In this document: piece by piece, positions 1,218-20,754 of the stretch
How the letters are laid out: every line of letters starts with the position of its first letter
How positions within the stretch are numbered: the first letter of the stretch is position 1
Source: a virus
IMG/VR virus record: IMGVR_UViG_3300032308_002092
Span: 87,208 to 151,207 of that record
Reading direction: 5' to 3' (one strand)
Length of the DNA: 64,000 nucleotides
Program-made: the position numbers and the translations under genes
Notes under the pieces: model-generated
Database searches by the model: none
Seen by the model: only the letters and a program-made list of their open reading frames with translations
What the model was told of the DNA's origin: nothing

Positions 1218-1493
1218 TTACTTGATTTTCCTAAGACGCAACCTAGTACCTGATGGATTGATTCTCTCGTCTTTCGTTAGCGCACTAGACACAGCAGAGC
1301 TGCAGTACTGTGCAAGCTCTTCCTCGCTAGAGTTCTTCTTCGTTGTCAGCTCGCCTGACTTAAAGACATCAAACAGCTTTTGTGCCACTTGGCTTTTAAA
1401 GCTCTTGTTCTTTAAGAGCTCTTCGTCAATACTAAGCTTGAGCTCTTCTGCTAGCTGGCATACGATTTGATAAATAGCTTCTTTTTGCGACAT
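1218..1493 (-). CDS. Short divergent paralogue of the ribozyme-flanked protein family
   Basis: MSQKEAI..FKSGEL..AQYCSSAVSSALTKDERIN aligns by eye with MKQNEAV..FISGEV..RSYASSVVANWFNKAPQIN of 8106-8612. Confidence 0.6.
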   Translation of the reverse strand: MSQKEAIYQIVCQLAEELKLSIDEELLKNKSFKSQVAQKLFDVFKSGELTTKKNSSEEELAQYCSSAVSSALTKDERINPSGTRLRLRKIK

Positions 1494-1526
1494 GGCAATC
1501 TCCTTTGAGGAATGATAAGATCGGAA

Positions 1527-1814
1527 TCATTCGATGTTGTACCCTAGTTCCTTCGCTCGCTTTACGGAAAGGGTTCCTCTCTCTTCTCCAGGTCGCTTGG
1601 TTCGATCTACGCCGTAGCGTTCGAAGTTAACCCACTTGCCATCTAGCTCAGCTAACTGATAAACGATCTGCTGATCGTCGATGAACGAGTGGCCAACGCC
1701 ATGCTGTTTAACCAGAGCCTCTACGGTTTCTTTGTATTCCTCGAAGAACCGCTTAACCTCTGCTTTCTTGCGGTCTAGCTCGACTAATTTAAGATGCAGT
1801 TGTGTTAGTGACAT
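1527..1814 (-). CDS. Hypothetical phage protein
   Basis: ORF with SD AAGGAG, operon packing. Confidence 0.7.
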   Translation of the reverse strand: MSLTQLHLKLVELDRKKAEVKRFFEEYKETVEALVKQHGVGHSFIDDQQIVYQLAELDGKWVNFERYGVDRTKRPGEERGTLSVKRAKELGYNIE

Positions 1815-2205
1815 GATCTTCTCCTTTTAGTAGTGTTTCTATAGCTTTCTCGGTCTCGTAGATGTCTATGAACTTCTGGAAGTCTTTTCTGTAGATTGCA
1901 GAGTCGTGCAAGATGAACCAGGAGTATCCCATTGAGCGATCCGAGGATAGCTTGAAAGGACTACCCAAGCACTTGCGTGCGATTCTAACTGTGCTCAACC
2001 AATCTGCGGTAATATTCCTGCACATCCTACCAGCATCTGAGTACTCGCGAAGGGTACAGTTAGATCTAGATCTAATAGTGTTTCTTTTAGCCGAGGCCTT
2101 GTTCTTGACAACTGCATAGCGAAGCATGGTGATGATGTGTTCGCATGTTGTGTCATTATAGAGATTACGCAGATTACAGGGCTGCAAACCGCAAGACTTG
2201 TGCAT
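1789..2205 (-). CDS. Hypothetical protein
   Basis: SD GGAGG upstream; overlaps next gene. Confidence 0.6.
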   Translation of the reverse strand: MHKSCGLQPCNLRNLYNDTTCEHIITMLRYAVVKNKASAKRNTIRSRSNCTLREYSDAGRMCRNITADWLSTVRIARKCLGSPFKLSSDRSMGYSWFILHDSAIYRKDFQKFIDIYETEKAIETLLKGEDHVTNTTAS

Positions 2206-2245
2206 AACACCTCCGATAGATACTGATGTCTATCGGATCGGGATC

Positions 2246-2821
2246 TTAATCTTTGATTACTGAGAGGTGTCGTGGCTTGGCTAGCTTGGTGGGCTCTGGC
2301 TTCACTTTGGCTTTAGTGGGTTCTTGCTTTGGCTTGGGCTGAACACGTGGCTTAGTTCCATCCATCACGGACATCGCTTGCTTTAGCTGTGCAGCTATGA
2401 CCTCTGACATCTTGGTTGGCTCGCCGTTGAACTGAATCATTGGGTTGTACCCGGAATCGACTGCACGCTGAAGGTGCTCTAATCTCTCTACGTTAAGATT
2501 CATCAGCCTATCTCTAAGGTCGTTCTTATAGAGCGCATGCGAAGCATTTTTGTTAGGTTGCTCTATCTGAGCTAAAAGTTCTTTCATCTCGCTGTGGCTC
2601 TTGTTGGCTGCCTTCATATGTATCTGTGCAGCCTTGGGAACCTCTAGCTCTGCTAGGTGCTCTTTGTAAAAAGCTAGGATGTTGGTCATCATCCTTAGTA
2701 CGTATCTGTGCTTGCTTATCTTGCTAGATAGGTAGTACCAGGCTGTGAGAAAACCTAAAGCAAATGAACCAGAGATTAGTAGTGTAACGGCTACGGCGGT
2801 CTTATCCATGGTTGTGTCCAA
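2246..2821 (-). CDS. Membrane-anchored hypothetical protein
   Basis: N-terminal hydrophobic helix AVAVTLLISGSFALGFLTAWYYL. Confidence 0.65.
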   Translation of the reverse strand: MDTTMDKTAVAVTLLISGSFALGFLTAWYYLSSKISKHRYVLRMMTNILAFYKEHLAELEVPKAAQIHMKAANKSHSEMKELLAQIEQPNKNASHALYKNDLRDRLMNLNVERLEHLQRAVDSGYNPMIQFNGEPTKMSEVIAAQLKQAMSVMDGTKPRVQPKPKQEPTKAKVKPEPTKLAKPRHLSVIKD

Positions 2822-2829
2822 TCACAACT

Positions 2830-3354
2830 TCAATCGTTGTTCTGCTCATCTTCTTGAACCTTAGAGTACACTAGTGCTGCTAACTCAGCTGTTGTTAAGC
2901 CTGTTTTCTTAAGTCTATCCCTGAATTCTTTTAGCTTCTTGGGGTCGGCATTGTGGCGACCTCTGTTCGCCTTCTCTGGGATATGTCTTGTGTTATCAGC
3001 AGCGTACCCATTTGAGTTTTTCTTACGATCTGGGCTCAGCTTTTCTCCCGCTTTCTTCTCTGCGTTCTCGAAGCTACTTGCCAACTTAGCATTAGACTCT
3101 GATTTGCCTTTGGACTTTGGCGTCGCGGTGCCGTTGCCGTGGTTCTCACGGCGGCGCGCCTGTTGCGCCTTATTCTGGGCCCTTTCCGGGTGTCCCACTG
3201 TCTGCCTGGCTGAGTTGAGCTTCTTCCTACATGCCCCGCATCTGACACCAGGTCCACCACCTGGGACGTCGGTATTGCATCTAACGCACTTAGATTTCTC
3301 AAGTATTTCGTTTGCCATCTTGTTTATTTTCTCTGAGAGATCTAAGTCGTCCAC
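2830..3354 (-). CDS. Zn-finger / HNH-like protein
   Basis: CVRC..CGAC and SPDRKKNSNGYAADNTRHI..ANR, resembling the DRxxNxxGYxxDN beta-beta-alpha motif; SD GGAGG and GGTATAAT upstream. Confidence 0.5.
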   Translation of the reverse strand: MDDLDLSEKINKMANEILEKSKCVRCNTDVPGGGPGVRCGACRKKLNSARQTVGHPERAQNKAQQARRRENHGNGTATPKSKGKSESNAKLASSFENAEKKAGEKLSPDRKKNSNGYAADNTRHIPEKANRGRHNADPKKLKEFRDRLKKTGLTTAELAALVYSKVQEDEQNND

Positions 3355-3403
3355 GTGAAACCTCCGATAATAGCTATACTATTATACCACCGACACTGCC
3401 TCG

Positions 3404-3586
3404 TCAGTCTTGCTCTAAATGCTTGTATTTATTGAGAGTATAAGTTAGGCGCTTCATGATCTCTGTTATCACGGTCTTGAACTCTGAACTAGAAGATACA
3501 TCCGCCAATACGTCATAGTATAGGTCAGATTGGTTCTCTATGTGCTTCATCGCTTCTTTCTTTAGTTCTTGCTTTGTTGCGTTCAT
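3404..3586 (-). CDS. Hypothetical protein
   Basis: ORF in tightly packed operon. Confidence 0.5.
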   Translation of the reverse strand: MNATKQELKKEAMKHIENQSDLYYDVLADVSSSSEFKTVITEIMKRLTYTLNKYKHLEQD

Positions 3587-3752
3587 TCATTATCCTCGCG
3601 TATAGGTAGTACTCTAAGTATAGAACTCTGTCGAAGTTGTAGCCAAAGGTGTTCTCAAATATCGTCTCTGGCTCTATCAGCTCGAGATCTTTTAGCATGA
3701 TGATTAGGGCCATTAATAGGCTTCTGGGTTCGTCTCTATTTAGAACCATTGG

Positions 3753-4028
3753 TTATCCAAGTTTCATGGACAGATCATCTACTGACTTAAATGGGATTAT
3801 ACTTCTCTGATCTTGGTCCCAGGTGCATTCGTACACGCGACCGTTGCGAGTCACTACGCCCACCATGAAGCCATTGTCCTCTATATCGGTTACTATAGCA
3901 ATTCGATCGTCTTTCGTGTACCACATGCCTAGCAAATCAAACTCGTCAGGCTCGGTCGGCATGTCTTCAATCACTACATCTAATTCGACTAACTTCAGGT
4001 GTGAGTACTTCGTGTCTCTCAGATTCAT
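3753..4028 (-). CDS. Hypothetical protein
   Basis: SD AGGAG, operon packing. Confidence 0.65.
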   Translation of the reverse strand: MNLRDTKYSHLKLVELDVVIEDMPTEPDEFDLLGMWYTKDDRIAIVTDIEDNGFMVGVVTRNGRVYECTWDQDQRSIIPFKSVDDLSMKLG

Positions 4029-4174
4029 CTAAAACTCCTAGTGGTTTACAAACGTCTTCTAGGAGAAACAACCCACGATACAACATCGACCATCCGGTCT
4101 CGGTACGGAACTTAAACCAGACGAAGTCATTGACCTCTCCGCCTAGTGGTAGCACTATCTGCTTACCATTCAAC

Positions 4175-4663
4175 TCATAGAGAGACATCGGCTCCAACAT
4201 TAAGCCGCTCATACTCCCTCCTCTTCCTCTCGTTGACTATAGCCATGGTTGCTAACTTGTCTGCCATCTCGTTGTACTGGTCACCAGAGTGACCCTTAAC
4301 CCACTTAAACACCAGATCTCTTTGATCTATCATCGATAGGATTTTTACCCAGATATCTTTATGGGCTATTGGATTTCCGTTGGCGGTCTTCCAGTTTCTC
4401 TTGATCCACCCGTCGGTCCAACCTTTGTTTATAGAGTTCACGATGTACTGCGAGTCGGTGTAGACCGTAGTTTTAGTCTTAGGGTCGACACGCTTTAGGC
4501 CTTCGTGTACCGCAGAAAGTTCGCAAAAGTTGTTGGTAGTGTTCTCTGAAACGTATCCGCAGTGTTGAGCCACTTGCCCACTAGGGTAGATTATTACACA
4601 ACCCCACGAGCCCTCTCCGGGATTCGGAGAGCAGGCGCCGTCGGTGTAAAGCAGTATCGTCAT
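4175..4663 (-). CDS. rnhA: Ribonuclease HI
   Basis: YTDGACSPNPG, TNNFCEL, TDSQY, WVKGHSG, NEMADKLA: all RNase HI catalytic motifs. Confidence 0.96.
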   Translation of the reverse strand: MTILLYTDGACSPNPGEGSWGCVIIYPSGQVAQHCGYVSENTTNNFCELSAVHEGLKRVDPKTKTTVYTDSQYIVNSINKGWTDGWIKRNWKTANGNPIAHKDIWVKILSMIDQRDLVFKWVKGHSGDQYNEMADKLATMAIVNERKRREYERLNVGADVSL

Positions 4664-4875
4664 ACTTGTTTTGCTTTGATGTAACCTAAGAGCATCTTGT
4701 CATACTCGCTTAGGTTAAAGGTTACCTTGATCTTTTGAGAGATGAGCATTAACTCGTACGCTAATCTCTCTTGCTCTCTTTGTCTTTGCAGTCTTTCGCC
4801 ACTGTACTCGTTGTCGTAGTTACCATAATACTCAGGCTCTTCGTACGTGCCGTAGCCTTGGTAAGTACTATACAT
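4660..4875 (-). CDS. Hypothetical protein
   Basis: Start/stop overlap with neighbours. Confidence 0.6.
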   Translation of the reverse strand: MYSTYQGYGTYEEPEYYGNYDNEYSGERLQRQREQERLAYELMLISQKIKVTFNLSEYDKMLLGYIKAKQV

Positions 4876-5314
4876 TTTGCTTAGCCAGTGGTTTGTAAGA
4901 GAACTTATCTTTCCACGCTAGTCGTTGAGCTTCCGACCATGGTCCGCCACCTTCTTCGATGATCTTGGCTCTTTGCGCAAGCCATCGATCGCCATCCGAG
5001 GACTTATTGACTTGCTTTATGAACGGAGAGTCCTCAATTGGGACTAGGTAACCTTCCTTACCCTTCCTTAGAGTGATCTCTAGCGATTCGCTTGTTTCCA
5101 CGAAGAGCCTTAGATCTTCTAGACTGCACTCATAGTAGGTACTGCCACCAGCTTGGTGACCTAGTCTGATCTTAGTCACAGAGGCGTTCTCGTCTGCAAT
5201 CTCTTCGATGTCATCCATGCACAGAAAAAGAGTATTCTTGGTTGTATGTAACTTAGATGTCATAAATAGAATGTTACCGGTAACTTCGTATCCGCTTTTC
5301 AAAACTTTCTCCAA
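4868..5314 (-). CDS. Hypothetical protein
   Basis: 148-aa ORF; start uncertain. Confidence 0.6.
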   Translation of the reverse strand: MEKVLKSGYEVTGNILFMTSKLHTTKNTLFLCMDDIEEIADENASVTKIRLGHQAGGSTYYECSLEDLRLFVETSESLEITLRKGKEGYLVPIEDSPFIKQVNKSSDGDRWLAQRAKIIEEGGGPWSEAQRLAWKDKFSYKPLAKQNV

Positions 5315-5358
5315 TGCTGTTACTATTCGGTCTGGATGATATGATATCGGAATCGATA

Positions 5359-5703
5359 CTAATCTGGTGGTAGTTTGACTTTATACGCCGTATATGTGAT
5401 CGTTGGGAACCTGTAGGGGAACAAGAAACTCGAGAAGAAAGGATCTTGAGAATGGTCGCGGACTTTAAACGGTACTGGCTCGACAATGAAGCCATTGTCA
5501 TTGAGGTCTTCTAAGCAACCGTCGTAGTAAGACAGACCCTCTTTTCCTGACCATGTTAGAGACTTGTCCCGGGGAAATATTACTGGTGTCTTGCCCTCCA
5601 ATAGGACAGTCTCTACGTCTTTGAGTAGCTTCTCTCTAACTTCTTTATTTCGCTCTAACCTATTATTTTCAATCTGACTTTTAATCTTCTGAGCAAGATT
5701 CAT
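5359..5703 (-). CDS. Hypothetical protein
   Basis: SD AAGGAGG. Confidence 0.7.
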   Translation of the reverse strand: MNLAQKIKSQIENNRLERNKEVREKLLKDVETVLLEGKTPVIFPRDKSLTWSGKEGLSYYDGCLEDLNDNGFIVEPVPFKVRDHSQDPFFSSFLFPYRFPTITYTAYKVKLPPD

Positions 5704-5766
5704 ATTTACCTCCTTCTTTCTTGCTGTAGGTAAAATAAGCTACCTATGAATTTGTAAACCCCCACC

Positions 5767-5967
5767 TTAATCTTTTGTATCTTTGCCTCTGAAGATATCT
5801 CTGTAGTACTTAATGTCCTGCAGCTGACGCATGCGGTTAATATCATCTGCCATCCTGCGTCTGTCTTGCTCTTCGGAAGAGCCGTAGCTGCCGCGACCTA
5901 GGAATATAGGTATCATGCCAATCAATATAAAAACTGCCAACAATATAAAAAATACGTCCGTGCTCAT
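5767..5967 (-). CDS. Small membrane protein
   Basis: Single N-terminal TM helix, SD GAGGA. Confidence 0.6.
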   Translation of the reverse strand: MSTDVFFILLAVFILIGMIPIFLGRGSYGSSEEQDRRRMADDINRMRQLQDIKYYRDIFRGKDTKD

Positions 5968-5987
5968 TAATCCTCTAATTGAGATGG

Positions 5988-6137
5988 GTGAAGGGTGGGA
6001 ACCGCGTAGCCCAAGCTTCGAACTTGAAGGTACCGTTCCCTCTACGCAACTTAGGCGCGCGTAGCCTATCTAAGAACAACCCGGGGTTTTAAGTCCTTCG
6101 ATTCTTAGGGACAGCCTATGCTTTCTTCTCCCCTCAC
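5988..6137. ncRNA. Candidate structured non-coding RNA
   Basis: Intergenic. Ends pair (GTGAAGGG..CCCCTCAC, GGGAA..TTCTT, GCGTAG..CTATGC); internal stems CTAAGAA/TTCTTAG, TAGGC/GCCTA, CAAG/CTTG. Confidence 0.4.
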
Positions 6138-6165
6138 ATATTTGGGGCTTGCACGGACGCATCCG

Positions 6166-6672
6166 TCAAAGAGTCTTAAAGAGATTCTTATTGGATTTAT
6201 ACTCGTAAAAGAAATCATTAAGTAATTTCTCAACACCCCCTGCTTCACGTATTTCACTTAGTGTTAGTGTATATGTTCTCATTATGTGAGGTGCTGGACC
6301 TTCATTATGGTCTATGAAGAAGTAACAATGTATTAACTCATGATAAACTATTTGTTTAACCTCCTCCTCAGAGAGGTTTAGAGCATCAACAAAGCTTACT
6401 ATTATTAACGGCATTATGTATATGCCCATCACGCCTATGGCTTGACACGTGCCTACTGCGGTTTTGTCCGGCATATTTCCAAAGACTATTTGCGGTCTCT
6501 CTTTAGTAGAGCAGCTTAAGCCGTGACTATCGCATGTGGTGATAAAGCGGTCTACCAAGTCTTCTAGAAAGACATCAGATTTTCTTGGCCCATCATACCT
6601 AGTGGTGCAGCAAGATGCTAAGATAGAGTAGAGTATGATAAGTATTTTTATTCGATAGTGCAGTCTATACAA
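6166..6672 (-). CDS. Putative exported zinc metallopeptidase
   Basis: Hydrophobic N-terminus ending ASCC; HELIHCYFFIDH (HExxHxxxxxH) followed by Met-turn-like HIM. Confidence 0.75.
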   Translation of the reverse strand: MYRLHYRIKILIILYSILASCCTTRYDGPRKSDVFLEDLVDRFITTCDSHGLSCSTKERPQIVFGNMPDKTAVGTCQAIGVMGIYIMPLIIVSFVDALNLSEEEVKQIVYHELIHCYFFIDHNEGPAPHIMRTYTLTLSEIREAGGVEKLLNDFFYEYKSNKNLFKTL

Positions 6673-7024
6673 GGAGCGTCCTTCTTATTATCTCGTCTGT
6701 TATTAGTTTTGCTGCCTCTTTGTGTATCACAGAGTTGTCGCGTGGCACAGTGGTTACCCTATCTATGGACCCACTGGAACTCAATAGCAACACATTCACC
6801 TGATCTCCATTGGAGCTTAGTTGTATTACTTTAGCGTAATGGTTTCCGTAGCTGCAGTAAACAAACGGAGAATCTCCATAGCCTTCGCACAACCAGAAGT
6901 GCCAGTCGTCGCGAAGAAGAGAATTAGGAGGCATAGACACGTCAGGTTTGGTCTTAGGACGAGTGAACACTATTGTGTCTTCACCGTCTAGTCCTTTGAT
7001 TGTCTTAATCGATGAATTTGCCAT
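6665..7024 (-). CDS. Hypothetical protein
   Basis: ORF overlapping next gene. Confidence 0.6.
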   Translation of the reverse strand: MANSSIKTIKGLDGEDTIVFTRPKTKPDVSMPPNSLLRDDWHFWLCEGYGDSPFVYCSYGNHYAKVIQLSSNGDQVNVLLLSSSGSIDRVTTVPRDNSVIHKEAAKLITDEIIRRTLLV

Positions 7025-7187
7025 CTTTTATACAATGCCCCCTGAAGTAGTAGCCTTGTTTATCTAGGCACTCTTTTCTGTCTTGATCGATACACGACTT
7101 CACCATAAATAGAAACATCACAGAAACTAAGATCGTCAGCGCCAAGCTGTATGCAAACCTTGTCACGTAATTGTCCTTATCCATAGC

Positions 7188-7976
7188 CTACTCTTGTTGT
7201 GCTTTATTGAGATGGTCGGCAGCTGCTCTAGTCCACTCCACGTAGATTTGATCAGGGTACAGTCTGCCGAACCACGTTATGTCGCAGCCCGGAGTCCAGA
7301 AGTACCAGTTCCAGGTAGGGTGGTCGTTTAGCGCGTTGTTCCTAGCTGCTTTAGATCTGTTTGCTTCTTCTTGTAGCTTTTGCAGATCACCTTTTAGGTA
7401 GTAAAGTACTGCGTCTTCCATGCCTCTTATTGTTTCAAAGGCTTTGAGAACGTGTTTCTCCCATAGTTTACCAACGCCGTGTTGTCTATTGAGCATCAGC
7501 GTAGCATAAACTAAGTTCAACTGGTAGTGCTTGTAGACTGTAAGTGCCTCAATCAAAGCAAGTGGGCCTCTCAACCAATTGAGCAAGAAGTACCATATGA
7601 TGCGCCAGCCAGCAAAGTGCATCTTTAGCTTAAGGGTTGGGATACAGGCTATCAGCTGAGCAAACCCCAGTACTCCCAGCTTGTTTCGGCCATCTGTGGA
7701 CGACGGTGTTATCAGCCCACCAGTTTTAACTACGTATCTAAGCATAAGGATGTGGTCGATGGTTGACCCGCCAAGCATAGCACCTAGGAACATGTCCCTG
7801 CTAGATGAGTTTGGGTAATCCTTTTGCGCTATTGCCGCTTCTGGGTTGCGCCAGACTCTGCCGTCTCGGTCAATGCACTGAGACACGTATAGAGATGCTT
7901 CGTAGTCGCCAACATGAGAAAACATCCCTGCGTATAGGGTGCTGTCGCCATGTACTTCTTTGTATTTTGGGTTCAT
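7188..7976 (-). CDS. Hypothetical protein (late-type promoter)
   Basis: 262 aa, SD AGGAGG, GGTATAAC upstream. Confidence 0.75.
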   Translation of the reverse strand: MNPKYKEVHGDSTLYAGMFSHVGDYEASLYVSQCIDRDGRVWRNPEAAIAQKDYPNSSSRDMFLGAMLGGSTIDHILMLRYVVKTGGLITPSSTDGRNKLGVLGFAQLIACIPTLKLKMHFAGWRIIWYFLLNWLRGPLALIEALTVYKHYQLNLVYATLMLNRQHGVGKLWEKHVLKAFETIRGMEDAVLYYLKGDLQKLQEEANRSKAARNNALNDHPTWNWYFWTPGCDITWFGRLYPDQIYVEWTRAAADHLNKAQQE

Positions 7977-8027
7977 ATATCCTCCTACTCAGGGTTATAC
8001 CGAGAGGGTGGGGTGGTGTGGGCGCGC

Positions 8028-8041
8028 CGTAGCAGTGTCAG
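8028..8041 (+). repeat. CGTAGCAGTGTCAG box, copy 1 of 5
   Basis: Same 14-mer at 16045, 17705 (1 mismatch), 18999, 20258, all in the same orientation. Confidence 0.85.
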
Positions 8042-8045
8042 GTGT

Positions 8046-8105: not shown

Positions 8106-8612
8106 TTAGCCAACCAAAGCCCTAAGGTGCTCTGGGATTGAGGAGAGGTCGAGTTGCTTTGCTTTGTTTTGGCGAGGGGTCTTAGCTGGCTTGCTAGCTA
8201 CCATCTCAGCCCTAACATTAGCAATGAAGTTTTTCACTTCAACGATCTTAGTTTCTTCTGCGCCTGAAGCAATAAGATTCTTGAGTACCTCAGTTGCTTG
8301 CTTGATCTGTGGGTTAGTACGGCTACCAGGGTTTTTAGCTTCATACTTGCCGCCGCCGTTGATCTGAGGTGCCTTATTGAACCAGTTAGCTACGACGCTA
8401 GAAGCGTAAGACCTGAGTGCTTTGTCGTCATCTAGCTTACCAGCCGAGCGCTGTGCCAAGACGACTTCGCCAGAAATGAAGCCTTCAAGCATAAGGCTAA
8501 CGATCTCACGACGTTGCTCTTCAGTTACGTACGAAGAAATGGGGGCACTACTATTAAAACTAGAACCAAGGACCTGCTTAGTATACGTTACGACCGCTTC
8601 ATTTTGTTTCAT
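8106..8612 (-). CDS. Ribozyme-flanked family protein, paralogue A
   Basis: ATG 8612 with SD AGGAG; shares NWxxKxPxxNGGxKxxxKNPGSR and C-terminal xSxxPEHLxxLVG with 16919-17365 and 20305-20754. Confidence 0.85.
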   Translation of the reverse strand: MKQNEAVVTYTKQVLGSSFNSSAPISSYVTEEQRREIVSLMLEGFISGEVVLAQRSAGKLDDDKALRSYASSVVANWFNKAPQINGGGKYEAKNPGSRTNPQIKQATEVLKNLIASGAEETKIVEVKNFIANVRAEMVASKPAKTPRQNKAKQLDLSSIPEHLRALVG

Positions 8613-8636
8613 GGTAAAACTCCTATATAGAAACAT

Positions 8637-8693
8637 TGACTCATCAGTGCTGGAACCTACCAGCAGATACCCTTGGTATCGGGTATTTCGTCA
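8637..8693 (-). ncRNA. Type II hammerhead ribozyme HH2 (5' of gene 8106-8612)
   Basis: TGAC-GAAA-TACCC(GATACCAA)GGGTA-TC|TGCTGG(TAGGTT)CCAGCA-CTGATGA-GTCA; AUC site; cleavage 8666/8665. Confidence 0.93.
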
Positions 8694-12941: not shown

Positions 12942-12948
12942 AAGTTAG

Positions 12949-13215: not shown

Positions 13216-13227
13216 TTAATATGTCCT

Positions 13228-14198: not shown

Positions 14199-14238
14199 AA
14201 TGGCCTCCTTTTTATAGTAATTTTAATACACTAATCAT

Positions 14239-14548: not shown

Positions 14549-14757
14549 CTCCGAAGGGGTCTCCCTTAGTATCCCTGTCTCTTGTACCTGCAAAATGGGC
14601 ACCGAACAACAGTCTAACATTACCTTGAGAACCGAAGTCCTCATCAAAGACTGGCAGGCTTCGTCCCATGCCTCACACTCCAACTACATACAGAACGAAG
14701 ATCCCTATCAGGATGGCAGCCCAAACCCCAATTAGTATCTCCATAGTCCCTATCCCC

Positions 14758-14952
14758 TTAAAGCAGGCTCAGTATGAAGCCTAGCACCACCAAGAACACC
14801 CAAAGCACCACAGAGTACAAAACAACAGTCAAGTACCATAGCCACAAAGCGGTCATCCCGACTATCTCTCTGAAGCCGGGGATAGACATCAAACCGCATA
14901 CTGCAGCTATAGCCAACACCAGTACGACCACCCTTGCCAGTAAGCGCCGCAT
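14758..14952 (-). CDS. Small membrane protein
   Basis: Two hydrophobic segments; SD GGAGG. Confidence 0.6.
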   Translation of the reverse strand: MRRLLARVVVLVLAIAAVCGLMSIPGFREIVGMTALWLWYLTVVLYSVVLWVFLVVLGFILSLL

Positions 14953-15023
14953 AACCCCTCCCCATATCGTGATTCATATACCTTCGGAATATAACTCAAG
15001 GGTCTGATGCCCACTTCCCACCC

Positions 15024-15233
15024 CTACTTAAACTTACAGCTCAAACCAGCTTTATTCAGGCCGTTATATCTATAGCAAATCACTTCGCTATTCTCTAGTC
15101 TGTACACACCAAAACCAACCGCCTTAGCTTCGCTAAAGCCATACTCACCGTCAACACCTCCATCAACGTTAGGCTCAGATACCCTAAAAGTACATCCGCT
15201 CAATACAATCAATCCAACCACTAGCACCTTCAT
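15024..15233 (-). CDS. Small lipoprotein
   Basis: MKVLVVGLIVLSGC lipobox; SD GGAGG. Confidence 0.7.
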   Translation of the reverse strand: MKVLVVGLIVLSGCTFRVSEPNVDGGVDGEYGFSEAKAVGFGVYRLENSEVICYRYNGLNKAGLSCKFK

Positions 15234-15289
15234 AAACCCCTCCCCACAATTACCCTACAACTATCCATTATCAATTCGGAATCCCATAC

Positions 15290-16250
15290 CTTACCTTCCC
15301 CAAACCCTGGGTGGAAGATATAGTAACCGCCGTAACTAACTTATAAACCCCTAAAATAACCTCTTATAACAACCTATACCCACCTATACCCAGTTATAAC
15401 TACCTACTAATCCCTATACCCTCAAATACCCTAATCCCCTACGTAACTACTACTATTAGATACACTTAAGTGCCAAAACCTACCGTAACTAACACGTACG
15501 TATCACCTTAACCCCATACCATTCCCAACCAACCACCTATACCAGTTAGTAGCACGAAAGGGATAGGGAGTGGACTGGTAGAGTTATAGTGATAATGATC
15601 CTCACCATTACTATAGGAAAGACATAAAAACTATAGTGATTTAACTAGCCTAGGGCGAGCCTATAGGCAGGTTGTTTCCGCCCACAACTATCCCTACTCT
15701 CGCAACAACATCTCTCACTTGTGGCCACGCCGCGGTAACCTATAGGGTTACAAATCACCACGGTTTTGCCCACCTATAGGTTTACAGGTCGGGTATCCTG
15801 CTCCCTCCTACCCTATCCCTACAGATACCTCCCGGGTGGTTTGCGTGTTGTCCTAGGGGTAAATCGGGTGTCGAGGAAATCATTAGGCTTTTTGGTAGTT
15901 GGGTTGGGAATGGTGCTTTCCCCTAGGGGTAAAATGAGATAGGTGGGTGGCTTTGTTGATATTGCTAGAGATTTTAGTTTCGGGATGATAGGAGTGAGAG
16001 AAGTCCTAGGGAGTTTTGCTCGTTTTAGGGCTTCGGGTGTGGGGCGTAGCAGTGTCAGGTGGTTTGGTGGGGTTGTTGGGCTACGGGGTGGGATAATGAT
16101 ATCAGTGAGTTACGGGTGTTTTGGTGGCGCGAGTTGGTGCGCTTAGGGCTGGGGGTTTATATACACTTTTATTTTGTGGTCTTGAGTTGTAGTTGGGAGA
16201 GTAGGATAAGTAGGGTGCGAATTCAAGTTGTTTGGGGGTGGCTATGATAA
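15290..16250. other. Mirror-symmetric non-coding region; candidate replication origin or terminus/packaging region
   Basis: C-rich left arm, G-rich right arm, iterated ACCTATACC and CCGTAACTAAC, central CCTATAGG/CCTAGG palindromes, 13-bp inverted repeat 15518-15530/15902-15914. Confidence 0.55.
16045..16058 (+). repeat. CGTAGCAGTGTCAG box, copy 2
   Basis: Exact 14-mer. Confidence 0.85.
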
Positions 16251-16263
16251 GCCCGTAGCCCAA

Positions 16264-16506
16264 TCAGACTATATACTCTTCGTCTAGTGGCTCATCGTAT
16301 AGGTGAGCTATGGAGTGCCATGGTCCTGGGACTGTGAAGAGGTCTAAGTTGCCAGAGCGTATAGCGTGAGCCTTAGCCATAGCTTCGTCCATGTCAGAGT
16401 GAGAGGAAACTACCCACGTCACTAGGTTGTGGACTTCGGAATCCACCTTCACGATAGTGTCGAAAGTAGAGTGGTCGTACATCACGAAGTACCTAATAGG
16501 TTGCAT
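16264..16506 (-). CDS. Hypothetical protein
   Basis: SD TAAGGAG. Confidence 0.6.
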   Translation of the reverse strand: MQPIRYFVMYDHSTFDTIVKVDSEVHNLVTWVVSSHSDMDEAMAKAHAIRSGNLDLFTVPGPWHSIAHLYDEPLDEEYIV

Positions 16507-16589
16507 AACATAGTCTCCTTACTTAATGGACAAGTTAATGAAGATGAGAGTCATTATCAACAAGAATATAGCCGCTGTGCCTGGATCCA

Positions 16590-16805
16590 TCACTCTGTCT
16601 CTTCCACGGTTATGGTGTAGGACTTGTCGTACTGGTCCTTCACTATGATGGTGCGCTTAGGTGACCTAAAGCTACCGTCTTCGTTTAAGTCCATCTTTAT
16701 CTCTACGTTCCTGAGCTTTATCTCAGTCGCCTTAGGTATGGCCGCAGTGATCACATGAGTGATATAGTCGCAGTATGCTAATCTCAACCCGCTTGACTTA
16801 AACAT
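16590..16805 (-). CDS. Hypothetical phage protein
   Basis: SD TAAGGAGG. Confidence 0.7.
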   Translation of the reverse strand: MFKSSGLRLAYCDYITHVITAAIPKATEIKLRNVEIKMDLNEDGSFRSPKRTIIVKDQYDKSYTITVEETE

Positions 16806-16843
16806 AGTCGTTCCTCCTTATATAGGGGATGGTATCGGAAACC

Positions 16844-16906
16844 GGACTCATCAGCATGGCTATCAGCCATGGACCTAGGATCTCGAGCGAGTCCTAGGTT
16901 TCGTCC
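16844..16906 (-). ncRNA. Type II hammerhead ribozyme HH3 (3' of gene 16919-17365)
   Basis: GGAC-GAAA-CCTAGGA(CTCGCTCGAGA)TCCTAGG-TC|CATGGC(TGATA)GCCATG-CTGATGA-GTCC; cleavage 16872/16871. Confidence 0.93.
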
Positions 16907-16918
16907 TCGGTTACGGAC

Positions 16919-17365
16919 TTATCCCACCAGGGATCTCAAGTGCTCGGGTAGTGCGGAGAGGTCCACAGTCTTGGCAGCAGACTTAGGCTGTGGGCGGTTA
17001 GCTTCAATGAACGCTTCGAGCTCAGCTGTAACTTCAGATCCCTTAGCGATCAGAGCCGCTTTGAGAGCTAGAGCTTGCTTGAACTCTGGGCTACCAGATC
17101 GGCTACCAGGGTTCTTGACTTCGTGCTTGACCCCACCGTTGAGGGCAGGTGACTTACGGAGCCAGTTGCTGAGCAGACCTGAAGCGTAGCTTCGCGCCTT
17201 AGCTTCGCTGTACTCCTTGCTCAAGCTGATCTCTCCGTTCATGAGTCCCGCTACGAGCATACCGATTGCTTCCTTGCGTTGCTCACTAGTTAGGGTGACT
17301 GCTTCCGCAGTTACTCCAACGATTGACTGTACGATCTCTACGACTGCCTTTGATTGTGACTTCAT
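16919..17365 (-). CDS. Ribozyme-flanked family protein, paralogue B
   Basis: ATG 17365 with SD TAAGGAG; NWLRKSPALNGGVKHEVKNPGSRSG..LPEHLRSLVG. Confidence 0.85.
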   Translation of the reverse strand: MKSQSKAVVEIVQSIVGVTAEAVTLTSEQRKEAIGMLVAGLMNGEISLSKEYSEAKARSYASGLLSNWLRKSPALNGGVKHEVKNPGSRSGSPEFKQALALKAALIAKGSEVTAELEAFIEANRPQPKSAAKTVDLSALPEHLRSLVG

Positions 17366-17383
17366 ATGTAACACTCCTTAATT

Positions 17384-17440
17384 AGACTCATCAGTGCCAG
17401 AACCTACTGGCAGATACCCTTGCTATCGGGTATTTCGTCT
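17384..17440 (-). ncRNA. Type II hammerhead ribozyme HH4 (5' of gene 16919-17365)
   Basis: AGAC-GAAA-TACCC(GATAGCAA)GGGTA-TC|TGCCAG(TAGGTT)CTGGCA-CTGATGA-GTCT; cleavage 17413/17412. Confidence 0.94.
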
Positions 17441-17444
17441 TAAG

Positions 17445-17594
17445 TTACCGACAGTAGTGATCGGCGTAGTTGCAGTAGAAGTCATAGACTTCGTCGTCAG
17501 TCCACGAGTCACAAGAGTAGTCTACGTCATCGTTTCCCGCTGCGATCATCTGAGCGAGGATGATGTTCACCGTAGTGCGAAGCGAACCTCTCAT
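17445..17594 (-). CDS. 49-aa hypothetical protein
   Basis: Not in track; MRGSLRTTVN...YADHYCR with SD AAGGAG. Confidence 0.5.
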   Translation of the reverse strand: MRGSLRTTVNIILAQMIAAGNDDVDYSCDSWTDDEVYDFYCNYADHYCR

Positions 17595-17704
17595 ATGAAG
17601 CACTCCTTGGTTAATCAACCTTGGTTGGTTGATAGTTATATATGGTATCGGGAAACTGGGGCTGCATCGGATCGTGGGGCCGAGGTGTGGGTTCGGGTGC
17701 TGGG

Positions 17705-17718
17705 CGTAGCAGTGTCGG
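17705..17718 (+). repeat. CGTAGCAGTGTC box, copy 3
   Basis: CGTAGCAGTGTCGG. Confidence 0.8.
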
Positions 17719-17741
17719 GCTTCACGCAGACACCCTCGGTA

Positions 17742-17924
17742 TCACTCCAGACCCTTGCAGGAGCTAGCGTCGTTGCTCTCGTTGGCCTGACAAGCCACGT
17801 ACTTCTCGCTGCTTTCCTTGGAGTTAGCCACCGAGATCTCACCTACTACGTTGATGGAGGTGTTGACTACAACTCCGCCCACGATAGCGTACACACAGTA
17901 CAAGACCACTAGTTCGATGCCCAT
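17742..17924 (-). CDS. Small membrane protein
   Basis: Hydrophobic N-terminus. Confidence 0.5.
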   Translation of the reverse strand: MGIELVVLYCVYAIVGGVVVNTSINVVGEISVANSKESSEKYVACQANESNDASSCKGLE

Positions 17925-18016
17925 TATAATGCCCCTTATAAACCTTAAAGCCCACTTAAACTGCCATTCTAATAGCTAGAATGGTATTCTAAAATCTAGT
18001 ATGTTATACTTTGCCC

Positions 18017-18334
18017 TTACCCCGGCAAGTTCTGCTTGTAGTACAAGTCACCCCAGTCGATGTAGAAGTCCTCGACCTTAGCGTGATCCCAAGCGTCGGA
18101 CCACAGCTTGATATCCTCGTAGCTATCCATGCTCATCTCCCTGCCAGTCACCAACTTAAAGGCATCGTTCATGAACATATTAGCGTCTACGTAGTCATGC
18201 GAAGCGCACTCATGCTTATGGTTGTGCTTGTTAGCTTCGCATATATCAACCATAGTGGCTAGACCAAGCTCAGCCATCAGTAACTCGGAGAACTTTTCTG
18301 CTATCTGTTCGTGTAGCTCTACTTCGAAATCCAT
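18017..18334 (-). CDS. Hypothetical phage protein
   Basis: CASHDYVDANM motif. Confidence 0.7.
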   Translation of the reverse strand: MDFEVELHEQIAEKFSELLMAELGLATMVDICEANKHNHKHECASHDYVDANMFMNDAFKLVTGREMSMDSYEDIKLWSDAWDHAKVEDFYIDWGDLYYKQNLPG

Positions 18335-18489
18335 CGTTCACCCCGGTAAGTTGTCTAGTATAAAGTTAAGCTCTTCTACTACTTCGTCGGAAACAGGTTG
18401 ATCTAGTGCCTCATCAGGTACATCTGGGTAGTATTCCAGCTTGAATTCGTCCCAAGCGAACTGCATTAACTGTCTAAGCGTAAGTTCGT

Positions 18490-18699
18490 TCATTGTCCAC
18501 CTCTTTCTTCTAAGGCTTGATACACTCGCTTCAGTAGCTCTGTGGGTTCGGTATAGAAATCATCCTTATCTAACTGCACCATATCCAGGTTTATCAGCGC
18601 CTGACTGAACCTCATATCGGGATAGGTCCTCAAGTAGGTCTCTAGTATCCGTAGTAGCTCCAAGTTAGCATGTAGTCGGACGCTCGTTGGTTGACTCAT
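18490..18699 (-). CDS. Hypothetical phage protein
   Basis: YPDMRFSQAL..DFYTEP pattern; SD AGGAGG. Confidence 0.7.
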   Translation of the reverse strand: MSQPTSVRLHANLELLRILETYLRTYPDMRFSQALINLDMVQLDKDDFYTEPTELLKRVYQALEERGGQ

Positions 18700-18998
18700 A
18701 ATAACCTCCTAGTTACATATAGATATAGATTCGGATACGACTATCAGAACCACTCACCCTTTCTTACAATCACCACTCTACTCGCTGTATTGACTATCAT
18801 CGCTCTTCTCCTTCTGCCATCGGAGAAGTATCTCATAGCCTCTTGTAAAGCAGAGAATGAGTGTATAGTCATGAAAGACCGTGCATCAGTTGAGCCGTGC
18901 CAAACCTGAACTTGATACATAATAAACTCCAATGTGTAAGAGAACTTTGTTATTCTCTTATTAATAATATATAGTTACGGGAATTAAATTCCCCTGGG

Positions 18999-19012
18999 CG
19001 TAGCAGTGTCAG
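18999..19012 (+). repeat. CGTAGCAGTGTCAG box, copy 4
   Basis: Exact 14-mer. Confidence 0.85.
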
Positions 19013-19047
19013 ATAGTGGTATAATACCCTTAGGTTAAGGAGAACAC

Positions 19048-19524
19048 ATGGAAAAGCTAATCAAGCATAGCAACGGGCAGTGGACACTAGTTAAGGCCAA
19101 GGACACTAGTAAGCACGGCAACTTCGGTGGTGGTAACTCCTTTGACGGAGGAGACCAGTATGTCCCCTCTAAAGAGGGTATTGCAGCAAACGCGGCTAGA
19201 GCAGCGGAGCAGAAACGCCTAGAAGCAGAAGCGAGCGCAGTATCGGCTGCACACAAAGATGTAGCCGACAGAGGCGAAGTTCGCCGACGCACCGAGCCGC
19301 CGAAAACCGTAGAAGATCACCCACTACACGGCGAGTTAGTTAATCACTTCAAGAACAAGCATGGGTTGGACCATCACGCTGCGTTTGCTGCGGCTACTCA
19401 TGTCATGACTTCGGGCCTCGGCGAAAAGACTCATGAAAGTGACTCAGATAAAGCAGCTACTGGTTCTGGAGCAGCCGAGGCCAAGAAGATCCTGGCTGGT
19501 AAGGTTAAGACCAAGATCTCTTAG
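19048..19524 (+). CDS. Hypothetical protein, possible internal virion protein
   Basis: Only well-supported plus-strand gene in the early region; GGTATAAT at 19018-19025 and SD TAAGGAG. Confidence 0.75.
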   Translation: MEKLIKHSNGQWTLVKAKDTSKHGNFGGGNSFDGGDQYVPSKEGIAANAARAAEQKRLEAEASAVSAAHKDVADRGEVRRRTEPPKTVEDHPLHGELVNHFKNKHGLDHHAAFAAATHVMTSGLGEKTHESDSDKAATGSGAAEAKKILAGKVKTKIS

Positions 19525-19529
19525 TCGTC

Positions 19530-19796
19530 TTATATAAGACCTTGTTCACTCAGTTGCTTCATCAGTGAATCATCATTCTTAGACCCAAAGACTCTCACTA
19601 CATCCTCATAATCACATAGTTCATCGGGGTCGTCGTGACATACGAACGCTAGTCCTTCGACTGTCTTCCACACTGAGAACTCATATATGCAGTGAACTCC
19701 TGTCTCTACGTAACCATCAGGTTCAGTGATTGAGCCATCGAACATCTTCCCCGCTTCTAACTCTGCAACAAGTTGATCGACTGTGAACTTACTCAT
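19530..19796 (-). CDS. Acidic hypothetical protein (tandem paralogue 1)
   Basis: TGVHxIYxFxVWxTxEGLxFxCxxDPDE shared with 19873-20139. Confidence 0.8.
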   Translation of the reverse strand: MSKFTVDQLVAELEAGKMFDGSITEPDGYVETGVHCIYEFSVWKTVEGLAFVCHDDPDELCDYEDVVRVFGSKNDDSLMKQLSEQGLI

Positions 19797-19813
19797 AGTG
19801 ACTCCTTAAAGTT

Positions 19814-19873
19814 AGACTCATCAGTGTGACTCTTAGTCACAGACTATCTTCGTTTCGGAAGATAGTTTCGTCT
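19814..19873 (-). ncRNA. Type II hammerhead ribozyme HH5
   Basis: AGAC-GAAA-CTATCTTC(CGAAAC)GAAGATAG-TC|TGTGAC(TAAGA)GTCACA-CTGATGA-GTCT; cleavage 19842/19841. Confidence 0.94.
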
Positions 19874-20139
19874 TATGCGAGACCTACTGCACTCAGCTGC
19901 TGATCAAGAGTGTCGTCTTCCTTATCCTCCTCGAAGAACCGCTTGACATCGTCGTAAGTTAGTATCTCATCGGGGTCTTCAGTGCATATGAACCTCAAAC
20001 CTTCGTCAGTGTCCCACACCTCGAAGTCGTATATGGAGTGAACACCGGTGCTCACGCCTCCGTGTGACAGGAACTCACCTGCAGTTAGTCTACCATCGGC
20101 GATCGCTTCTTCTAACTCTCTGACTGTGATCTTACTCAT
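19873..20139 (-). CDS. Acidic hypothetical protein (tandem paralogue 2)
   Basis: Paralogue of 19530-19796; SD GAGGAG. Confidence 0.8.
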   Translation of the reverse strand: MSKITVRELEEAIADGRLTAGEFLSHGGVSTGVHSIYDFEVWDTDEGLRFICTEDPDEILTYDDVKRFFEEDKEDDTLDQQLSAVGLA

Positions 20140-20257
20140 GACTTCTCCTCATGTTGTTCACACATTAATAGAATCGGAAAACACACTAATAAATATTTAA
20201 GTTTTTCAACTCATTTATTTATTAATAATATATAGTTTCGGAAACTATATCCCTGGG

Positions 20258-20271
20258 CGTAGCAGTGTCAG
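20258..20271 (+). repeat. CGTAGCAGTGTCAG box, copy 5
   Basis: Exact 14-mer, adjacent to GC hairpin 20273-20297. Confidence 0.85.
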
Positions 20272-20304
20272 TGGGTACGGGCACCACGCCCGCACCCAAC
20301 TCAC

Positions 20305-20754
20305 TTAGCCAACCAACTTCTGGAGGTGCTCGGGAAGCGCTGAGATATCCACGGTCTTCTCGGTCTTCACCGGAGCGTTGGCTGCGATGAACATCAGGAG
20401 CCCAGTAGGAATCTCCTTGCCTTGCTCAGCCAAGTACTTCTTAAGCGCGATCGCTTGCTTGTACTCATTGCTCCCACTTCGTGAGCCTGGGTTCTTAGCT
20501 ACGTACTTCACTCCGCCATTCAACTCGGGCGACTTACGTACCCAGTTGTCCAGCAGTCCCACCGAGTAACTCCTCATCTTCTCGGGAGTGTCGTGCTTAG
20601 CCCGAGCACCCGCGCTCATATCAATCTCACCATCAACCAAGCCTTGTGTGATCAGAGTCAAGCACTCTTCTTTCTGCTCCTTGGTCAACTTAACTCCGGG
20701 AGTAAATCCCTCGATCCCACTCACGATCGCTACGACTGCATCTACTTGCTTCAT
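20305..20754 (-). CDS. Ribozyme-flanked family protein, paralogue C
   Basis: NWVRKSPELNGGVKYVAKNPGSRSG..LPEHLQKLVG; SD TAAGGAG. Confidence 0.85.
   Translation of the reverse strand: MKQVDAVVAIVSGIEGFTPGVKLTKEQKEECLTLITQGLVDGEIDMSAGARAKHDTPEKMRSYSVGLLDNWVRKSPELNGGVKYVAKNPGSRSGSNEYKQAIALKKYLAEQGKEIPTGLLMFIAANAPVKTEKTVDISALPEHLQKLVG

Follow-up and report, generated by a model that had tools for sequence, protein, structure and literature searches.

Genes and RNA elements at the locus

The DNA considered here, a window of 64,000 nucleotides from a 151,207-bp phage genome, carries three full paralogous genes and a set of RNA elements around them (Table 1). Translations and their alignment give identities of 37-54% among the three proteins, with 42% and 37% as the values relative to the first sequence of the alignment. 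All three share NW-x2-K-x-P-x2-NGG, [YH]-x2-KNPGSR and a terminal PEHLxxLVG. The ORF caller began paralogues 1 and 2 at positions 8636 and 17374, but on the basis of the family alignment and the SD sequences we prefer the ATG codons given in Table 1. A fourth ORF, described earlier as a truncated and divergent copy with no ribozyme, is confirmed as such. In its version of the family's invariant loop the Trp and the NGG-Y-KN stretch are gone, neither a hammerhead nor the 16-nt word discussed below was found near it, and a single-sequence search with it found no relatives of its own. The four-member family reported in the preliminary description, including the motifs assigned to the full ORFs, is real.

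Table 1. Family genes, predicted ribozymes and word copies in the window
Feature	Position	Strand	Remarks
Truncated, divergent N-terminal-domain copy (P0004)	1218-1493	-	91 aa; profile E 3.2e-11, profile positions 2-85 only
Word copy just past the downstream hammerhead of paralogue 1	8028-8041	-	
Type II hammerhead directly after the paralogue 1 stop codon	8046-8105	-	core CUGACGA; predicted cut 8074/8073
Family paralogue 1 (P0005/P0001)	8106-8612	-	168 aa from ATG 8612; profile E 2.5e-49
Type II hammerhead upstream of paralogue 1	8637-8693	-	predicted cut 8666/8665; RF02276 26.1 bits, below GA 37
Word copy	16045-16058	-	
Type II hammerhead after paralogue 2	16844-16906	-	predicted cut 16872/16871; excised RNA would be 541 nt
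Family paralogue 2 (P0002)	16919-17365	-	148 aa from ATG 17365; profile E 1.7e-57
Type II hammerhead upstream of paralogue 2	17384-17440	-	predicted cut 17413/17412; RF02276 29.4 bits, E 0.004
Word copy, CGACAC variant	17705-17718	-	head of the unit with paralogue 2
Word copy	18999-19012	-	
Type II hammerhead number six, lying between unrelated 88-aa ORFs (two in tandem)	19814-19873	-	from the descriptor
GC hairpin (20273-20297) and word (20258-20271) after paralogue 3	20258-20297	-	arrangement of most family genes elsewhere
Family paralogue 3 (P0003)	20305-20754	-	149 aa; profile E 3.2e-58; AF2 model pLDDT 86.9
Type II hammerhead upstream of paralogue 3	20773-20829	-	predicted cut 20802/20801

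Distribution and sequence of the family

The family search returned 525 matches, and there are 837 clusters at 50% identity. Family members occur in viruses only, the matches in prokaryote genomes being mis-binned phage contigs and nothing else. They are standalone proteins of about 150-170 aa, and a search for fusions gave none; a KGG stress-repeat motif in the N-terminal extension of one relative of 265 aa was judged uninformative. A genome typically holds two to four anciently diverged copies, with two or three on one strand in many loci, and the tree indicates that the paralogue types predate the phage lineages. The genes sit in a hypervariable accessory region and have no conserved neighbor, the best non-family neighbor being found in 13 of 109 locus groups.

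The protein has an invariant basic and aromatic loop, NW-x2-K-x4-NGG-x2-Y-x2-KNPGSR-x-GS, accompanied by a conserved C-terminal tail, LPExLxxLV. In the family alignment, all invariant columns are basic, aromatic, Gly, Ser, Asn or Pro, and none is acidic or His. Profile searches of the kind proposed in the preliminary description assigned the paralogues to no characterized family, and the family remains, as first described, an uncharacterized one: no significant profile match was found in Pfam-A, PHROGs v4, NCBIfam or PDB sequences. The three full paralogues have no match at all in Pfam or PHROGs, the best NCBIfam match is NusB at 16.6 bits (cut-off 131), and the profile search of PDB sequences reached E 1.6. 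A scan of 32 family members gave scattered matches, to one or two members each and all far below family level. Resemblances to NusB and to acyl carrier protein were dropped as noise. Nothing similar to the window's DNA or proteins was found in 50,697 GenBank phage records.

Hammerhead ribozymes in this genome and in other phages

A strict descriptor (core CUGANGA plus GAAA, three helices and an NUH site) picks out six type II hammerheads, and no more, across the whole genome. It has no match in shuffled DNA, and all six hammerheads are on the minus strand within the window. Every core reads CUGAUGA or CUGACGA with GAAA, and AUC or GUC stands at the junction. Each element has the three helices expected of this type, in which loops close stems I and III while stem II stays open, and 10 of 15 predicted stem pairs show compensatory changes. 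Rfam at its gathering threshold (37 bits for RF02276) gives no match over the window; RF02276 matches are reported for just two of the six, at 26.1 and 29.4 bits, both below gathering. No exact match to the upstream-ribozyme sequence was found in IMG/VR. Judged by core and helices, the six elements are type II hammerheads, for which self-cleavage is predicted.

Five of the six adjoin the three full family genes, three ending 22-27 nt ahead of family start codons and two starting 0-12 nt past family stop codons. If about 70 gene junctions are assumed for the minus-strand block, the placement of five of six ribozymes on six family flanks has a p of about 3e-6. As the sixth hammerhead lies ahead of an unrelated 88-aa ORF, the family is the main cargo here and not the sole cargo.

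The comparison then extends to 147 other family genes and the 603 kb of DNA surrounding them, all outside the group of closest relatives (54-87% identity). This DNA contains five hammerheads, four of them distinct, on three contigs, and all adjoin a family gene: upstream in L062, on both sides in L109 and downstream in L050. The tree places these family genes in another clade of the family than the window's genes, and the ribozyme lineage is different as well. In L050, the hammerhead is exactly in the slot that holds the hairpin, word and promoter-like motif of other copies. About 95% of family loci, on the other hand, have neither a hammerhead nor any other Rfam ribozyme; searches with type I and type III descriptors gave no hammerhead in the neighborhood of family genes, and Rfam at gathering on 40 related loci gave two tRNAs and nothing more. 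Conversely, the family is present at only one of 120 unrelated hammerhead-bearing phage loci. The preliminary description had made the family the cargo of ribozyme cassettes and had suggested looking for co-occurrence of homologues with hammerheads. That association stands in this genome and on three distantly related contigs, but it extends neither to most family loci nor to hammerhead-bearing loci in general. The link is real but lineage-limited.

Gene-flanking phage hammerheads are already known (Perreault et al. 2011, PMC3088659). In prophages, clustered hammerheads flank one gene or a short block of genes, which genes these are varies from case to case, and the ribozymes are proposed to divide long transcripts into mRNAs of gene length (Perreault et al. 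2011, PMC3088659). The present arrangement is similar: the ribozymes are of type II, their catalytic core is complete, and they lie on the coding strand to either side of single genes within a polycistronic region. It differs in that one protein family is the repeated cargo, on at least four contigs and in two family clades, in that the ribozymes occupy the slot of the relatives' hairpin-plus-word, and in that the Rfam scores are below gathering.

Since many different phage genes are flanked by hammerheads, the adjacency of ribozyme and family gene might mean nothing, with a hammerhead-plus-SD leader acting as a portable cassette that is co-copied or randomly inserted. The sixth hammerhead does share its SD-bearing tail with the one upstream of paralogue 3, and the three upstream ribozymes are far more alike than the genes downstream of each. 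Yet the five ribozymes that adjoin the family include two unrelated downstream ones with different stems, and the four distinct hammerheads elsewhere all adjoin a family gene despite belonging to a different clade and ribozyme lineage. We regard a meaningless adjacency as very improbable.

Hairpins and discrete messages

Among 114 non-redundant family genes, 89% have a strong hairpin within 90 nt past the stop codon, against 21-26% of control ORFs, which come from crude ORF calling (p 4e-36 and 3e-24). A U-rich tail is found at only 9 of the 114, thus the hairpins may not be terminators and may instead serve RNA processing, message stability or some other purpose. In most phages of the clade, a CCGAnnCTA-type promoter-like motif lies 40-60 nt ahead of the start. 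The suggestion that family genes have dedicated elements forming their RNA ends is borne out, by hammerheads here and by the 3' hairpin across the family, and the notion that the message is discrete and probably stable extends in the same way beyond this phage.

The best explanation, which we favor with moderate confidence, is that ribozymes and hairpins make discrete messages of an uncharacterized family. The clade-wide design would be expression of family genes as hairpin-ended single-gene messages. Most phages would achieve this with the promoter-like motif before the start and the strong hairpin, often followed by the word, just past the stop, while type II hammerheads would give the same outcome at the RNA level in the few phages, this one included, that carry them. 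A cut about 45-50 nt before the AUG would leave a 5'-OH end with the stem I hairpin as a cap, and a cut past the stop would leave a 3' end with the stem III hairpin as a cap and a 2',3'-cyclic phosphate. Such ends would be expected to insulate the message from its neighbors and slow end-dependent decay, giving a high or long-lasting dose. No biological role of bacterial or phage hammerheads has been agreed upon so far; the finding of one family with hammerheads in few lineages and hairpin signals in most is a natural swap, which argues that the ribozymes make defined, hairpin-capped ends. The analysis demonstrates the family with its spread and paralogy, the ribozyme positions and the hairpin statistics; that the ribozymes cut in the cell, that the messages are stable and when they are expressed are matters that we infer, early expression being suggested by gene position only. 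As a whole, the earlier interpretation of a high-dose or long-lived early product made with dedicated RNA processing is partly supported.

Synthetic insulators of the RiboJ type offer a parallel. In these, a hammerhead or satellite ribozyme in the 5' leader cuts itself upstream of the RBS, so that the mRNA begins with a 5'-OH and a hairpin and its expression no longer depends on what lies upstream. Unlike these, the arrangement here occurs in nature and has a partner ribozyme on the 3' side, and the closing stem II extends towards the SD region.

A different fate can be imagined for doubly flanked genes, namely excision and circularization. All six ribozymes have a GAC/GUC stem II core in common (and both L109 ribozymes have GGUC/GACC), so hybrid hammerheads could form by re-pairing of the upstream ribozyme's 5' half with the downstream ribozyme's 3' half, and ligation by the ribozyme or by host RtcB would then give an exonuclease-proof circular mRNA. 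The 5'-OH and 2',3'-cyclic phosphate ends left by hammerhead cleavage are RtcB substrates, and the predicted cleavage ends would suit this enzyme. However, paralogue 3 has no downstream ribozyme, L062 and L050 have one ribozyme each, and most family genes have plain hairpins. A stem II formed in this way would have no more than 3-4 bp, and neither RtcB nor an Rnl2-type ligase was found in the phage genome. Perreault et al. sought circular or spliced products of flanking prophage hammerheads and found none (PMC3088659). Circularization is, in our estimation, highly unlikely.

Fold and possible function of the protein

The protein has an all-helical fold in two parts, as modeled with AF2 for paralogue 3. 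Structure prediction, another of the checks first suggested, yielded a model with no match clearly above noise beyond a family member. Foldseek against the PDB reached a best E of 1.1, and a wide VIA-align search gave a best Z of 5.3, inside the noise range for helical models. In BFVD, the sole significant structural neighbor is A0A6J5KXM4 of an uncultured Caudovirales phage (Foldseek E 3.7e-6, TM 0.67, 29% identity), which belongs to the same family and, being unannotated, brings no functional information. The family is widespread and phage-only, and it matched no known family or fold in these searches. With more than 800 clusters and an invariant loop, it is a good target for structure and binding studies.

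The model has no functional match, and the case for ligand binding comes from residue chemistry. The invariant residues, with nothing acidic and no His, would favor ligand or nucleic-acid binding over metal catalysis. Our leading suggestion, which is tentative, is that the protein may bind, through the invariant loop, a phosphate-bearing ligand common to many hosts, such as RNA, DNA or a nucleotide.

The protein could also act at high dose in counter-defense or host takeover, for instance by soaking up nucleotide immune signals as a sponge or by binding some conserved host machine, in which case ribozymes and hairpins would only raise the dose. A small, phage-only, multi-copy protein encoded in a hypervariable accessory region, with message-stabilizing ends, would fit such a role, and the invariant residues (Tyr, Trp, Lys, Arg, Asn and Ser among them) may be read as typical of nucleotide pockets. 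But no likeness to a known sponge or anti-defense fold was found in the PDB or BFVD, and the strong conservation across very different GC contents and habitats is unlike that of arms-race proteins. We think this role rather unlikely.

An ultraconserved word downstream of the hairpins

The sequence box mentioned in the preliminary description proved to be an ultraconserved 16-nt word, acTGACACTGCTACGCc, which co-occurs and co-localizes with the family across the clade. The box in the form CGTAGCAGTGTCAG has seven matches at two or fewer mismatches, where 0.6 are expected, and five of the seven are in transcript sense inside the block with family genes. Family loci contain the word in 195 unique contexts, all on the gene strand, compared with one in 1.06 Mb of unrelated phage loci. 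It lies within 120 nt past the stop of 44% of family genes, the figure for controls being 9%. Of 114 family genes, 23 form word-to-word single-gene units. A hairpin precedes 182 of the 195 words, at a distance of 0-3 nt in 71% of cases, and a CCGAnnCTA motif follows the word at a variable 0-35 nt. The words are located in a variable accessory region. The word is identical across phages whose proteins are about 35% identical, and for a clade of uncultured phages it gives unusually sharp access to regulation.

T4-type phages have composite terminator/promoter cassettes called PeSL (Arbiol et al. 2010, PMC2839356; Comeau et al. 2014, PMC4122927). These too place a stem-loop and then a promoter-like sequence, repeatedly, between small ORFs of accessory type, where the genome of a large myovirus is hyperplastic. 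PeSL sequences, however, are alike only within close phage pairs and have sigma70-like -35 and -10 boxes, whereas the word keeps its identity among distant phages, hugs the hairpin and has no -10 at a fixed distance.

The association raises the question of whether the family protein is itself a sequence-specific reader of the word, in DNA or in nascent RNA past the hairpin, and so a regulator of its own small-gene module; terminator, antiterminator, activator and processing cofactor are roles that such a regulator might have. Searching from the word alone retrieves the family in 41 of 46 multi-word loci and in 32 of 36 non-redundant groups (the next commonest genes occur in 14 and 13), and five genomes of 126-177 kb have 3-11 words each, clustered in the 10-20 kb with family genes. 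An invariant protein loop would also suit an invariant target. Against this, the co-occurrence may merely mirror one phage clade with conserved synteny, since lysozyme and Cys-rich genes are nearby too. The family is present without the word in the 24-kb record of L062 and in about ten loci of 3 kb or more, the structure searches found neither an HTH nor a known RNA-binding fold in the protein, and word variants and the protein motif show no co-variation. It seems to us unlikely that the protein reads the word. We hold an equally low opinion of the broader proposal that a large clade of uncultured freshwater and soil myoviruses has a two-part system, in which the word directly past the hairpin at gene ends and the family as its reader would set the ends of a few messages and hammerheads would be an interchangeable RNA-only substitute. 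If true, word and reader would give these phages a new kind of gene punctuation, built on a defined pair of protein and nucleic acid.

Other explanations of the word were discarded. As a sigma70 -35 box (cTGACA) it has no -10 at fixed spacing, and as the substrate of a trans-acting hammerhead it would need a ribozyme with matching arms, of which the genome has none. No virion or single-subunit RNA polymerase was found as a reader, the giant ORFs being baseplate and fiber proteins. A PF00940 search gave no match, nor did its positive controls, and a sigma search of the genome found a gp55-like sigma region 2 only. A 12-nt antisense match to the word just outside the window is at an ordinary gene junction and at chance level.

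A phage-only protein family

The three full paralogues in the window belong to a new protein family that is large and restricted to phages; to judge from sequence anatomy, its messages appear to be individually end-capped. The preliminary description had grouped these ORFs together; what it observed is borne out, and its reading is supported in part. Their translations and alignment are clearly related, with a central NW..K.P..NGG / [YH]..KNPGSR stretch and a C-terminal PEHLxxLVG common to all three. Its start codons at 8612 and 17365 are favoured over longer mechanical ORFs by alignment with relatives and by Shine-Dalgarno (SD) sequences, and its fourth member is, as claimed, a truncated, fast-diverging copy, matching the family profile over the N-terminal 85 positions only (E 3.2e-11) and keeping a shrunken loop remnant, INPSGTR, before it stops; a single-sequence search with this copy found no relatives. 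A 90-aa ORF outside the window matches the family profile weakly, in the C-terminal tail only (positions 135-159, E 0.006).

A profile search returned 525 relatives; an exhaustive search, clustered at 50% identity, returned 837 representatives, of which 248 have E below 1e-30. All members are standalone proteins of about 150-170 aa; fused forms were looked for and none found, which is weak evidence. Pfam, PHROGs, NCBIfam and PDB sequences hold no family-level match, and the ESM Atlas neighbours are hypothetical, virus-only clusters. Among prokaryotes (one genome per species, 185,579 species), only four loci match, all on MAG contigs, and two of these share one contig of 146,658 bp, which IMG/VR also lists as a phage record.

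AlphaFold2 gives a confident, all-helical model (mean pLDDT 86.9): residues 1-80 form an N-terminal bundle, followed by a conserved loop of lower confidence (80-95), a helical hairpin and a short terminal helix. The best PDB hit by Foldseek has E 1.1, VIA-align against 48,161 chains gave a top Z of 5.3, within the stated noise range for helical models, and the sole return of a BFVD fold search was an unannotated family member. Suggestions as to function come from residue chemistry. The invariant columns are Q3, V7, Y63, N70, K74, N79, K87, N88, P89, G90, S91 and P141, and the near-invariant ones W71, G80, Y84, R92, G94 and S95, with no acidic or histidine residue among them; the overall median pI is 7.9, with an acidic N-terminal domain and a basic loop segment.

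The 192 family ORFs in related loci are all on the same strand, and two or three copies occur within 3-6 kb in 35 of the 147 loci. In a maximum-likelihood tree the paralogue types predate the phage lineages; the window's three full genes each have an orthologue of their own elsewhere (53-87% identity), and several other genome sets keep one copy of each of two paralogue types. The family thus characteristically keeps several diverged copies.

Hammerhead ribozymes around the family genes

Under a strict descriptor the whole genome has exactly six type II hammerheads, all in the window and on the - strand, and shuffled sequence has none. Their cores are canonical and their stems vary between copies with compensatory changes; the Rfam type II model reports only two of the six (26.1 and 29.4 bits, both under its gathering score of 37). 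Three end 22-27 nt 5' of family start codons, and two, those after paralogues 1 and 2, begin 0-12 nt 3' of the stop codon. The sixth separates two unrelated 88-aa ORFs in tandem, and its SD-bearing tail is the same as that of the hammerhead before paralogue 3. Downstream (3') of the second of these ORFs, TAAGACGACTAAGAG looks like the beginning of a decayed hammerhead.

Cutting at the predicted sites would free an RNA of 592 nt carrying paralogue 1 and one of 541 nt carrying paralogue 2. With stem II as the open helix, each excised RNA would start with a stem I hairpin and a 5'-OH and end with a stem III hairpin and a cyclic phosphate. All six ribozymes share a GAC/GUC stem II, so that the ends of an excised RNA could in principle form a hybrid ribozyme and close it into a circle. 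We consider such circles very unlikely, as one paralogue lacks a 3' ribozyme, other hammerhead contigs mostly have a single one, no RtcB or Rnl2-type ligase was found in the genome, and Perreault et al. (PMC3088659) detected none.

The family had been proposed to be the cargo of ribozyme cassettes. We scanned around other family genes in IMG/VR and JGI metagenomes (147 loci, 603 kb, about 109 non-redundant groups, with records very near the window left out) using a relaxed, energy-based descriptor. Every hammerhead found adjoins a family gene; there are five in the 147 loci, four of them distinct, on three contigs. In locus L062 the hammerhead is 26 nt upstream of a family start, in L109 hammerheads lie upstream and downstream of the gene in the same cassette as in the window, and in L050/L048 one lies directly 3' of the stop codon of a second family copy. 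The genes at these loci belong to a different family clade from those of the window, and their ribozymes, which have a GGUC/GACC stem II, are also of another lineage. In the reverse direction, 120 viral loci (1.06 Mb) were picked for a type II hammerhead of the GGUC...GACC form and nothing else; the family occurs in them once, on the L062 contig, in agreement with Perreault et al. (PMC3088659). The ribozyme link is thus general only in part. Gene-flanking hammerheads are an arrangement of a known kind, and the novelty is a single family recurring as cargo; end-capping of family messages by hammerheads, as it appears here and in a few other lineages, is a variant of that arrangement. An unrelated phage contig (IMGVR_UViG_3300014059_000106, 2701-4801) carries five type II hammerheads in 2.1 kb, a dense case of gene-by-gene ribozyme punctuation.

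Hairpin-ended messages

A hairpin of -15 kcal/mol or lower lies within 90 nt 3' of 89% of 114 non-redundant family genes (median -22.6), as against 21% of all other same-strand ORFs and 26% of ORFs conserved between loci (p 4e-36 and 3e-24, with crude control ORFs). A U-rich tail follows 9 of the 114. In L050 the hammerhead occupies the exact place that the hairpin, the conserved word described below and a promoter-like motif take in sister copies, and in the window paralogue 3 ends in a hairpin and the word, paralogues 1 and 2 in ribozymes. Because of these hairpin statistics, the L050 substitution and the mixed endings, we read the ribozymes as a probable RNA-level route to the same single-gene, hairpin-capped message, an equivalence that we infer from anatomy.

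A CCGAnnCTA-type motif is common 40-60 nt before family start codons. The core of this motif as it precedes family genes in other phages, YCCGAWA, recurs in the loop of stem III in each of the four hammerheads that lead genes, and 17 of the 19 YCCGAWA matches in the 1-22 kb block are on the - strand. In one other phage a family gene is preceded by a near-identical CCGATACCAAG-GGTATC stretch, with no ribozyme around it.

Features of the family module and its surroundings (window positions, or genome positions where marked C1)
Feature	Position	Strand
Truncated family copy	1218-1493	-
RNase H gene, accessory block	4175-4663	-
Word acTGACACTGCTACGCc, five copies	8028-8041, 16045-16058, 17705-17718, 18999-19012, 20258-20271	-
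Paralogue 1	8106-8612	-
YCCGAWA, stem III loops of four gene-leading hammerheads	8677-8683, 17424-17430, 20813-20819, 19853-19859	-
C-rich, G-poor tracts	15900-17720	-
Paralogue 2	16919-17365	-
Tandem paralogous acidic 88-aa ORFs, sixth hammerhead between	19530-19796, 19873-20139	-
Paralogue 3	20305-20754	-
Lysozyme with N-terminal Cys-rich domain (C..C...C.CP type)	21908-22507, about 22507-22914	-
gp55-like sigma region 2 match	C1:39083-39226	
90-aa ORF, C-terminal tail match	C1:74936-75205	-

The conserved word

The most striking feature of the analysis is a 16-nt word, noted as the box CGTAGCAGTGTCAG in the preliminary description and borne out here, which reads acTGACACTGCTACGCc in transcript sense. 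It is identical across phages (L069-L147, L272-L386) whose family proteins share only about 35% identity. Family loci hold it in 195 unique contexts, all on the gene strand, and the 1.06 Mb of unrelated hammerhead loci once. When IMG/VR was searched by the 15-mer alone, 41 of the 46 loci with at least two copies held a family gene in the fetched stretch; single-match loci are perhaps chance, since by our estimate a collection of this size should contain chance occurrences of a 15-mer. Among non-redundant groups of multi-word loci, 32 of 36 have the family, followed by two related small Cys-rich proteins near lysozyme (14 and 13 of 36). In each of five genomes of 126-177 kb there are 3-11 words and no match to the reversed control pattern, and the words cluster within the 10-20 kb that carry the family genes; in the window, words and full family genes both span about 8.0-20.8 kb. 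The ultraconserved word is tied to the same module as the family genes.

Of the family genes, 44% have the word within 120 nt 3' of the stop, versus 9% of other ORFs. In 129 of 182 cases (71%) the word is preceded at 0-3 nt by the end of a hairpin, whose sequence varies. No conserved sequence was found at a fixed distance downstream, and a standard -35 box was rejected on that ground; no relation as a trans-hammerhead substrate was found, and the genome gave no sign of a phage early RNA polymerase of its own. The nearest published analogues are the PeSL terminator/promoter cassettes of T4-type phages (PMC2839356, PMC4122927), which, unlike the word, are conserved only between close relatives. 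That the family protein binds the word, with which its genes are so often found, stays a minority hypothesis, because the family also exists without it, in the 24-kb L062 record and in about ten loci of at least 3 kb. Strongly C-rich, G-poor tracts surround some words (near those at 16058 and 17718); their composition is rut-like and might mark Rho-dependent termination.

Genome setting

The virus record is 151,207 bp, about 91% complete by the CheckV estimate, and the window is its final 64 kb. The + strand carries tail sheath, baseplate and fibre genes from ~22.7 kb onwards; the - strand, from ~22.5 kb back to position 1, carries a block of small ORFs that includes the family genes. This accessory block contains an RNase H gene, and a gp55-like sigma region 2 match elsewhere in the genome scores 20.4 bits, slightly under the cut-off. 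Free proteins of 80-90 aa with the Cys-rich domain of the lysozyme also adjoin the family module in 13-14 of the 36 groups of related phages.
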